Positions 39,449 through 42,638 of a stretch of DNA of 64,000 bases are shown here, piece after piece (the stretch's first letter is position 1; every line of letters begins with the position of its first letter). The translations under genes were made by a program, and so were the position numbers. The notes below the pieces were generated by a model that searched no databases, was not told where the DNA came from, and was given only the letters and a program-made list of their open reading frames with translations. Origin of the DNA: an uncultured Gemmatimonadales bacterium (GTDB lineage: Bacteria > Gemmatimonadota > Gemmatimonadetes > Gemmatimonadales > Gemmatimonadaceae). Location: the NCBI GenBank assembly GCA_963701965.1, contig OY969695.1:288001-352000 (forward strand), read 5' to 3'.

Positions 39449-40365
39449 TTGCCCACCTCGATGCGCGGGTCGAGCACGCTGTAGAGCAGGTCGACGCCGA
39501 GGTTGACGATGACCACGAGCACCGACGACATGAAGAGGATGCCCATCAGGAGGTTGTAGTCGCGCTGGAACAGGGCGTCGAACGCGAGCGTGCCCAGGCC
39601 GGGCCAGCCGAACACGACCTCGACGACGACCGAGCCGCCGAGCACCGCGCCGAGCTGCACGCCGAACAGGCTGACGAGCGGCAGGATCGCGTTGCGCAGC
39701 ACGTGCCGGTACGCGACCTGGCGCTCGCTGAGGCCCTTAGCCTTGGCGGTACGCGCGAAGTCCATGCCGGCGATCTCGAGCATCGAGGCGCGCATCAGCC
39801 GGGTGTAGGTGGAGATGTAGAAGAGAGCGAGCGTGACGGCGGGCATCAGCAGGTGCTTGCCGACGTCGAAGGCGTTGCCGACCGGCCCGAAGTCCTCGCC
39901 GATCGTGCTCATGCCGCTGCTCGGCAAGAGGCCTAGCTTCACCGACATCAGCACCGTGAGCATGAGGCCGAACCAGAACAGCGGCGTCGAGTAGCCGAGT
40001 AGCGCGACGACCGAGATCACCGAGTCGCGCAGCGACCCGGGCCGGCGCGCCGCGGCGACGCCGAGGACGATGCCGCCGACGAGCGCGATCCCGAGCGCGC
40101 TGAACATCAGCAGCAGCGTTGCTGGAAAGCGCGACAGGATGAGCTTCACGACCGATTCGTTGTGGCGGAACGAATGGCCGAGGTCGAGCGTCGCGAGCGC
40201 GCCGAGGTAGCGGCCGAGGCGCACCGGCAGCGGCTTGTCGAGGCTGTATTTCTCGCGAAGCGCGGCGAGGTAGGCCGCATCGGCCGCGCCGGACTCGCCC
40301 GCCATCACGTCGACCATGTCCCCCGGCGCGGCGTTGACGATCAGGAAGTTGGTGCAGGCGATCAG
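39445..40365 (-). CDS. Peptide ABC transporter permease DppB-like (system 3), 5'-truncated at the junction
   Basis: [48 protein letters not shown]. No start codon of its own. Confidence 0.88.
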
Positions 40366-40372
40366 CACCAGC
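40363..40372. other. Probable chimeric junction between two genomes
   Basis: Minus-strand frame switches from ClpC ([11 protein letters not shown]) to DppB ([17 protein letters not shown]). Gene content differs on each side. Confidence 0.85.
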
Positions 40373-42638
40373 TCCTCCTCGGACAACCGCTTCTGCACAT
40401 CCTTGAGCAGAATGCCGACGATCTCGCCAATGTTCTCTTTGCTGAGCGGGTGGAACACGATCACATCGTCGAGCCGGTTCAGGAACTCGGGGTTGAAGAC
40501 GTGGTTCAGCTCCTCCTTCACCTTCTCGGCAATCCGGTCGAAGCTCGTCCGCGAATCCGCGGCCGCGAAGCCCAGTGACTTGCCTTTGGTGATATCCTTG
40601 GCGCCGACGTTCGACGTCATGATCACCACCGTGTTCTTGAAGTCGATGACCCGGCCGTAGTTGTCCGTGAGAATGTCCCTCATCCAGCACCTGCAGCAGG
40701 ATATTGAACACGTCCGGGTGCGCCTTCTCGATCTCATCGAGCAGGACGACACTGTACGGCTTTCTCCGCACCGCCTTCGTGAGCGTGCCCGAGTCCTCGT
40801 ACCCGACATATCCCGGCGGGGCCCCAATGAGCCGCGACACGGAGAACTTCTCCATGTACTCGCTCATGTCGACCCGGATCAACGCCGAGGAATCCGCGAA
40901 GAGGAACTTCGCCAGCGCCCGCGCCAACTCCGTCTTGCCCACGCCCGTCGGACCGCAGAAGATGAACGAACCGATCGGCCGGTTCGGATCCTTGAGTCCG
41001 GCGCGCGACCGGCGGATCGACCGCGCCAACGCCTTGATGGCCTCTTCCTGCGCCACCACCGACCCGTGCAGCTCGTCCTCCATGCGCAGAAGCCGGGTCG
41101 TCTCGGCCTCCTGGAGTCGCGTCACGGGAATCCCCGTCCACCGGCTGACGATGAAGGAAATCTCCTCCTCGCCCAACACCGGACGGTGCGACTGCCGCCG
41201 CTTCTCCCACTCCTCCTGCTTCCGCCGGATGTCGGCCTGCAGCTCGCGCTCCTTGTCCCGCAGCGCCGCCGCCTTCTCGAAATTCTGATCGCGGACCGCC
41301 GCCTCTTTCTCGGCGATGTTGGCGTCCAGTTTCCCCTTGAGCTCGGCCACTTCCGGTGGCGGCACCTGGGCCGCCAAGCGCGCCCGCGCGCCGGCCTCGT
41401 CGATCACGTCGATGGCCTTGTCCGGCAGGAACCGGTCCGTGATGTAGCGCTCCGACAGCTTCGACGCCGCGACCAGCGTGGTGTCGGGAATCGTCACGCG
41501 GTGGTGATCCTCGTACTTCTTGCGCAGACCCTTGAGGATCTCGACCGTCTCCTCGACCGTGGGCGGGTCGACGATGACCGTCTGGAACCGCCGCTCCAAC
41601 GCCCCGTCTTTTTCGATGTACTTGCGATACTCGTTCAACGTCGAGGCACCGACGCACTGGAGCTCTCCGCGCGCGAGCGCGGGCTTCAGCATGTTCGACG
41701 CGTCGATGGCGCCCTCGGCCGCGCCGGCGCCGACGAGCGTGTGCAGCTCGTCGATGAACAGGATGATGTTCTTGTTCTGCGCGATCTCGTTCATCACGGC
41801 CTTGAGCCGCTCCTCGAACTGGCCGCGATACTTCGTGCCGGCGATCACCGCCGCCATGTCCAGCGACAGGACCCGGTTGTCGCGGAGCGACTCCGGGCAC
41901 TCGCTGTTCGCGATCAGCTGCGCCAGCCCCTCGACGATCGCCGTCTTACCGACGCCAGGCTCGCCGATCAGGACCGGATTGTTTTTCTTGCGGCGGGTCA
42001 GCACTTCCATGACCCGCTCGATCTCCTTCGCCCGCCCGATCGTCGGGTCGAGCTGACCCTCGGCGGCGAGCTGCGTGAGATCGCGGCAAAAGTGGTCGAG
42101 CGCGGGCGTCTTGGACTTTTTCTCGCCCTTGGGCTGCGCCGTCTGCGGCGTGCCCGCCCCCTGCTGCGCGGTCGCGGCGCCACCCTGCGGCATTTCGGTC
42201 CCGAGGAGACGCAGCGTCTCGCTCCGCGCCGCCTCCAGGTTCACGCCGGCGTCGGTCAGCACCTGGGCGGCGATGCCCTTTTCCTCGCGCACCAGGCCGA
42301 GCAGCAGATGCTCGGTGCCGACGTACGAGTGATTCAGCTCGCGCGCCTCGCTCATGGCCAGCTCGAGGACTTTCTTCGCCCGCGACGTGTACGGCAGATC
42401 GGGTCCGGTCGCCTGCGCGGCCTTCCCCTTCTTGACCGTCTCCTCGATTTTCTGCTGGATCTCCTCGAGGTCGACGCTCAGGTTCTGCAACACCGCCGCG
42501 GCGACGCCCTCACCCTCGCGAATCAGCCCGAGCAAGAATGTGCTCAGTCCCCACGTATTCGTGGTGCAACCGAGCCGCTTCCTCGCGCGCCATGGCGAGA
42601 ACCTTTCGGACCCGCTCCGTGAAGTTGTAGCCGTTCAT
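40366..42638 (-). CDS. clpC: ATP-dependent Clp protease ATP-binding subunit ClpC, 3'-truncated (two indels)
   Basis: [14 protein letters not shown], two Clp-N repeats, [17 protein letters not shown] coiled coil, [26 protein letters not shown]-terminal small domain missing. Confidence 0.93.

Follow-up and report, generated by a model that had tools for sequence, protein, structure and literature searches.

The stretch of DNA analysed here (the window, 64,000 nucleotides) corresponds to positions 288,001-352,000 of C1, the single contig (5,116,566 bases, 5.12 Mb) of a genome rated 94.96% complete and 4.23% contaminated. At 40,369-40,372 of its minus strand, the 5' part of a clpC gene without its last ~74 codons (40,369-42,690, start approximate) is joined to the 3' part of a gene for a dppB-type ABC permease without its first ~14 codons (39,445-40,372; PF00528 and PF19300). 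This join (J1) was located by alignments and by a change point of a Markov score at 40,368. The clpC genes of the same genus (4/4: L002-L005) align with the window until 40,370/40,369 and continue beyond that point as LT-LRLT to a normal stop, and a Burkholderiales dppB (L011) aligns from 40,372, the truncated gene being 96% identical to it at the amino acid level. According to these alignments to both parents, 3-4 letters at the join are compatible with either. As members of an mcsA-mcsB-clpC operon and of the DppB/OppB permeases, respectively, both halves are ordinary by profile and by their relatives.

The minus strand at 40,340-40,400 translates as ClpC running into DppB sequence, and the earlier note had read this as ClpC fused in frame to a permease. 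That reading stands for the last ~100 ClpC codons, the only ones in frame with DppB as assembled, but not upstream of them, where an extra base at 40,673 (minus strand), found in this genome only (8/8 alignments, four same-genus genomes), breaks the frame. The long ClpC open reading frame is out of frame at the join, and the PF07724 match is split over two frames (positions 1-103 and 104-165). The normal ClpC tail is present in 9/9 aligned clpC relatives, and the normal dppB start in 7/7 dppB relatives. Considering the broken frame and these relatives, a genuine fusion protein was rejected; it has no support, and each gene is complete once a second join, near the opposite contig end, is counted (see below). 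Exact 30-mers across the two joins had no match in metagenome_contigs, a weak result obtained with no positive control from a set that may leave out near-identical records. Likewise, no contig bridging J1 was seen among the 32 listed of about 31,900 pieces (4 runs), which is evidence neither way. The J1 site of dppB is bridged by contigs from three independent runs (X2, X3 and X4); of these, the X4 contig follows the window with 96% identity until 40,372 and diverges after it.

The left side of J1 (1-40,372), with an ABC transporter, tolB, pal, a tRNA-Lys pair and dpp clusters, is part of a 328 kb Burkholderiales chromosomal arm (C1 1-328,372, the donor arm), while the right side (40,369-64,000), with mcsB, an mcsA-like gene, lysS, prfB, era, an rRNA operon and tRNAs, is part of a 4.78 Mb Gemmatimonadota-like chromosome (the host). 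The donor PrfB is 91, 83 and 74% identical to those of three Burkholderiales MAGs and 49-50% identical to those of two host-genus genomes, while the host PrfB shows the opposite pattern (85% to the two host-genus genomes, 48-50% to the three Burkholderiales MAGs). The nearest atlas clusters of the donor Pal are commonest in Pseudomonadota and those of McsB in Gemmatimonadota, few members of either having taxa. The 16S sequence is 97.9% identical to that of G003, which belongs to the same genus. The phylum label of the host rests on the McsB clusters and on a gene order typical of that phylum. The markers thus place the two sides in different lineages and agree with the earlier note, which had called the left side betaproteobacterial and the right side Gemmatimonadota-like. 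Its caution that the 16S should not be used to assign the host of the left side was also well founded, given the different placement of the two prfB copies. What it called an “island” on the left is, by contrast, chromosomal DNA of another organism that extends over 328 kb up to the start of the contig. The rRNA operon (52,526-57,619) is the only one of the genome, and no tRNA was called between its 16S and 23S genes.

The contrast between two tRNA-Lys(CTT) genes described in that note was recovered as well. The donor copy (9,212-9,292, plus strand) ends in CCA and the host copy (58,014-58,086, minus strand) does not, and they are alike in 52 of 76 letters; more generally, CCA is encoded in 4/5 tRNAs of the left arm vs 8/57 in the rest.

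A gene scan of C1 1-288 kb, covering 164 of the 194 called genes of at least 120 aa, found the housekeeping genes prfB, trpS, purN, trxB, ftsK, uvrD, polA, dxs, recJ, yebC, purD, hemF and rlmH in the donor arm, which is therefore chromosomal and not a plasmid. For all of the 17 named donor genes, the best match among the host genes is a separate gene with 33-54% identity (best hits, not orthology), and 82 of 296 donor proteins match the host part, none above 64%. About 30 kb of the arm, up to the tRNA-Lys pair, is colinear with a contig (C9) of the donor relative G031 at 76-87%. The dpp cluster was absent from 30 host relatives (including the unpublished G012), where only ATPase matches of ~0.3-0.7 kb at 69-74% were found. 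The region C1 220-240 kb had been considered as a ribosomal-protein operon, which the gene scan ruled out. Two IS110 transposases, an IS3 transposase, two group II intron reverse transcriptases and an error-prone DNA polymerase lie at C1 ~238-254 kb (L112:18,035 to L113:14,423). A tyrosine integrase is located beside a tRNA-Ser(TGA) at C1 48,305-49,694, also in the donor arm, and likely belongs to another island.

The GC content is similar on both sides and barely shifts at the joins. Tetranucleotide profiles, whose comparison the earlier note had proposed, do differ: their second principal component separates the initial 328 kb and the final few kb of the contig from the rest. The sign of a 5th-order Markov score, trained on arm sequence remote from the joins, switches at C1 328,368 (window 40,368). 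By this score, donor-like 2-kb windows amount to 0/2388 in the host, 103/164 in the left arm and, weakly, 4/4 in the right tip; the figure of 103/164 for the left arm counts against a chimeric origin of the contig. The lower coding density of the donor arm (0.66 vs 0.82-0.88) was set aside, as the gene-caller model had been trained on the whole contig, which is mostly host. For the host part alone, the GC skew divides into arcs of 2.36 and 2.42 Mb and dnaA lies close to its minimum, and counting the donor DNA would shift them from 49:51 to 46:54, both of these being weak indications. Matches to dnaA over the cut-off, at C1 2,642,482-2,643,702 (split in two frames) and 2,722,386-2,723,399, flank the GC-skew minimum, and two further partial matches lie within C1 592,861-594,615.

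The missing parts of both genes meet each other outside the window, at a mirror join (J2) on the minus strand of C1, at ~5,106,719-724 (L099 ~10,153-158). Here, around C1 5,106,722, the C-terminus lacking from ClpC adjoins the start lacking from dppB, followed by dppA and upstream genes, and the minus strand reads RRFAQALV|RLTPAGSEF, so that the two joins are reciprocal. The earlier note had stated that ClpC loses its C-terminal domain and DppB its start, substrate-binding protein and promoter. Both genes are indeed cut at J1, but nothing is lost from the assembly, because the ClpC tail, the dppB start, dppA and the upstream genes are all present near the opposite contig end. The ClpC tail (C1 5,106,721 to about 5,106,500, minus strand) is intact by profile (PF10431, positions 29-81) and by relatives, with 86% amino acid identity to G003 (E 9e-38). 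Its differences from relatives are mostly at third codon positions (9/4/26 to 11/4/27 by codon position), and therefore the tail, being undecayed, was that of a working gene. An Omp85/POTRA gene comes after it and an LpxC-FabA fusion farther on. All five relatives with sequence beyond clpC (G003, G004, G005, G007 and G017) continue into C1 5.09-5.106 Mb, beside J2; G001 was not counted among them, its contig stopping too soon. On the donor side, L011 and L012 have dppA and about six more genes upstream of dppB, and this DNA matches C1 5,112,7xx-5,106,723; furthermore, the cluster is uninterrupted across dppB in the donor relatives G031 and G032. The position of J2 rests on the alignments, because the Markov change point closest to it (5,110,990) is 4 kb off. 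A perfect 18-nt tandem duplication (L099:9,776-9,811) is present in the interval from the clpC tail to the Omp85 gene, ~350 nt from J2.

The contig is thus laid out as 328 kb of a Burkholderiales chromosome, a Gemmatimonadota-like chromosome of 4.78 Mb that is interrupted within clpC, and a further 10 kb of Burkholderiales DNA (328,372 donor, 4,778,349 host and 9,845 donor bases). Taken together, J1 and J2 lack 12 nt that a clean crossover would have kept, as judged from four clpC and five dppB relatives. An ABC ATPase gene is interrupted by the contig start, and the contig end does not supply its remainder; circularity of the contig was rejected on these grounds, and the donor DNA is therefore not a closed circle. 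The open ends and the chromosomal housekeeping genes also led us to reject a plasmid or other circle inserted by a single crossover. No repeat family spans J1 or J2, neither join has att direct repeats, and none of the 14 genome hits in a profile search for tyrosine integrases (PF00589) is near them. The genes flanking both joins are all accounted for, and none is an integrase or transposase at an end, the integrase profile having been PF00589. These results agree with the earlier note, which saw no IS, att site or integrase at the join, and extend to J2 for repeats, IS and tyrosine integrases. A site-specific element integrated at the join was rejected for want of att repeats there and of a tyrosine integrase nearby.

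A direct repeat does occur in the donor DNA away from the joins. The 3' half of the donor tRNA-Lys(CTT) (9,243-9,292), 31 kb from J1, recurs with 49/50 identical letters at C1 5,116,436-484 (L099 ~19,870-19,918), 82 nt before the contig end. They bound 40.9 kb of donor DNA, an island with peptide ABC transporters and catabolic genes, which is split in two by J1 and J2, and as the repeat bounds both pieces it provides independent support that they are neighbours in the donor. None of the 14 PF00589 hits falls inside the island. In G031, the dpp cluster is on a different contig from this tRNA-Lys.

The two parts of the contig also differ in their error level. Judged against two relatives per stretch, frameshifting indels found in this genome only number 37 in 18.2 kb and 35 in 9.4 kb of donor DNA vs 3 in 10.9 kb and 2 in 12.7 kb of host DNA, that is 2.0-3.7 vs 0.16-0.27 per kb, an about tenfold step at the joins. 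The highest rates, 11-13 per kb, occur at less than 3.5 kb from the joins. In the window, ~2 kb at 36,988-38,905 contain 11-12 such indels per kb by comparison with relatives, which suggests a raw-read-like error level and a depth of about one read. At the protein level, 13/33 genes are frameshifted in the donor and 4/55 on the host side (proteins with <65% identity or <70% cover were dropped; 3 of the 55 matches are paralogous or off-target). The excess of frameshifts on the left noticed earlier is thus borne out by both counts. The error level of the tRNA-Lys island is the same as or above that of the rest of the donor arm. Housekeeping genes are broken outside the island too, so we infer sequencing error at low depth instead of decay. 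The indel excess points to a far lower read depth for the donor, depth being deduced here from the error rate. The sequencing platform was not deduced, because the homopolymer signature of the indels is not clear (6/22 and 13/27). The ~1.4 kb dppB piece beside J1 has no frameshift despite its error-dense neighbours, which a chimeric assembly does not explain.

We consider it very likely that the contig is a cross-phylum chimera of long-read assembly, in which a complete circular host genome was threaded, at a site within dppB, into a low-depth contig of another organism. Misassembly, as the earlier note proposed, fits the presence of both lineages, the duplicated housekeeping genes, the step in error rate, the open donor ends and the lack of a shared repeat. 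The chimeric read that it named as the other possibility is, however, not sufficient by itself to explain two reciprocal joins. We propose that the two genomes were merged at one position each, in the same node of the assembly graph, by a false link that was most likely a chimeric long read; the circular host chromosome would then hang on this node as a loop. A contig path running from the left donor part through the whole loop to the right donor part would produce two reciprocal joins from one error, and trimming or polishing could account for the 12 missing letters. Judging by the accessible parts of the publications, gluing of aligned positions is a property of repeat graphs (10.1101/2020.01.15.908285), chimeric reads cause chimeric assemblies (the myloasm preprint, 10.1101/2025.09.05.674543), and cross-phylum chimeric contigs are documented in long-read assemblies (Trigodet et al., 10.1101/2025.04.22.649783). 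Those parts of the three publications describe no mechanism for a reciprocal misjoin, and no reciprocal nested chimera was found in the titles and abstract openings of the literature searched. The source run was not among 24 runs, the best share of the window's words being 0.15 (none at half or more). A near-exact reciprocal pair of joins with a small deletion is also expected from a real single crossover or end joining, and this counts against the chimera.

Such a real event could have taken place in a minority of host cells if the donor's 40.9 kb tRNA-Lys island left its chromosome as a circle, which was then cut in dppB and became integrated into clpC through illegitimate recombination or end joining; the assembler would afterwards have linked the integrant to the donor chromosome via the att repeat. 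The reciprocal joins, their overlap of 3-4 letters and the net loss of 12 nt fit this scenario, as does the location of J1 inside a segment bounded by the 49/50 tRNA-Lys repeat. Assemblers can also report a minor subpopulation from few reads, according to the accessible part of 10.1101/2025.04.22.649783, and the matching 28 kb cluster adjoins non-Burkholderiales DNA in G032 too. However, the island lacks a tyrosine integrase, its errors are at least as frequent as in the rest of the donor arm, and reads would be required for two separate rare joins. Moreover, the join in G032 is itself located mid-gene, has no mirror at the contig ends checked, and is accompanied by a second such join in the same bin, as chimeras would be. 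We regard such a rare integrant as very improbable, and give an equally small chance to both joins being real molecules, in which case a minority of Gemmatimonadota cells would have taken up a Burkholderiales circle (comprising at least the tRNA-Lys island of 41 kb) and inserted it into clpC without homology and with a loss of 12 nt, a transfer between phyla observed while still under way.

A clonal cross-phylum transfer or chromosome cointegrate, with the whole host population carrying at least 338 kb of Burkholderiales chromosome inside clpC, would be in line with the single contig, the similar GC content and the reciprocal joins. It is hard to reconcile with the tenfold indel step at the joins and the broken donor housekeeping genes, with donor ends that do not close, with a ClpC tail free of decay, with the absence of the cluster from all 30 relatives and, weakly, with the altered balance of the skew arcs, and we hold it to be highly improbable.

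The usual route to such joins is ordinary repeat collapse, where the assembler crosses over in a repeat or mobile element common to both genomes. There is a transposase case in the accessible part of 10.1101/2025.04.22.649783, but here the longest exact word common to the 300-nt flanks of both sites is 10 nt, self-BLAST of both join flanks gives only paralogues at 65-77%, away from the join, and no repeat family covers either join, so that this route is already largely excluded and its probability is minimal.

The chimera that we favour resembles the multi-phylum chimeric contigs in the accessible part of 10.1101/2025.04.22.649783 in having two phyla per contig, a shift in composition and gene taxonomy, and duplicated housekeeping genes. 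It differs in that mirror joins with no repeat enclose a whole chromosome, a nested case not described in that part, and in that the GC content barely shifts, only k-mer profiles showing the switch. With the chimeric long reads of 10.1101/2025.09.05.674543, again as far as its accessible part goes, it has in common a homology-free join at very low inferred depth, but one such read gives one join, and the mirror join would need a step in the assembly graph. Campbell-type single crossovers and tRNA-anchored islands are alike in their reciprocal joins and in the direct repeat of a tRNA 3' half in the donor segment; here, the joins are off the repeat, share 3-4 letters and lost 12 nt, there is no integrase, and the DNA is open-ended and chromosomal.

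In G032 (a MAG titled Acidobacteriota; L012), the GC content rises from ~0.53 to 0.65 at ~647,840 of its contig C2 (L123:7,600-7,900), where the reading frame of a dppF-like gene stays open into the 3' part of an OmpR-type gene (PF00486). The matching 28 kb cluster, at 81-82%, belongs to the high-GC part, which extends to the end of the contig. This join is probably a second chimera, and a mirror to it is absent at the four ends of contigs C1 and C2 of that genome. At the start of its contig C1 (L132:1-1,100), ~1 kb of high-GC DNA, with genes that by eye resemble a thiolase, a zinc-ribbon protein and an SDR, joins lower-GC DNA mid-gene, which is a probable further chimeric tip in the same bin.

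As it stands, a one-contig species representative carries 338 kb (6.6%) of the chromosome of another phylum, which would give rise to false calls of cross-phylum transfer, to a spurious ClpC-permease fusion and to wrong assignments of hosts. Removal of C1 1-328,372 and of 5,106,722 to the end would leave a likely closed chromosome of 4.78 Mb. The pattern of mirror joins also provides a diagnostic that needs no reads: where a gene is cut at a switch of lineage, its other half should be sought at the far end of the contig. The finding therefore matters for the curation of this genome, and not as biology of the organism.
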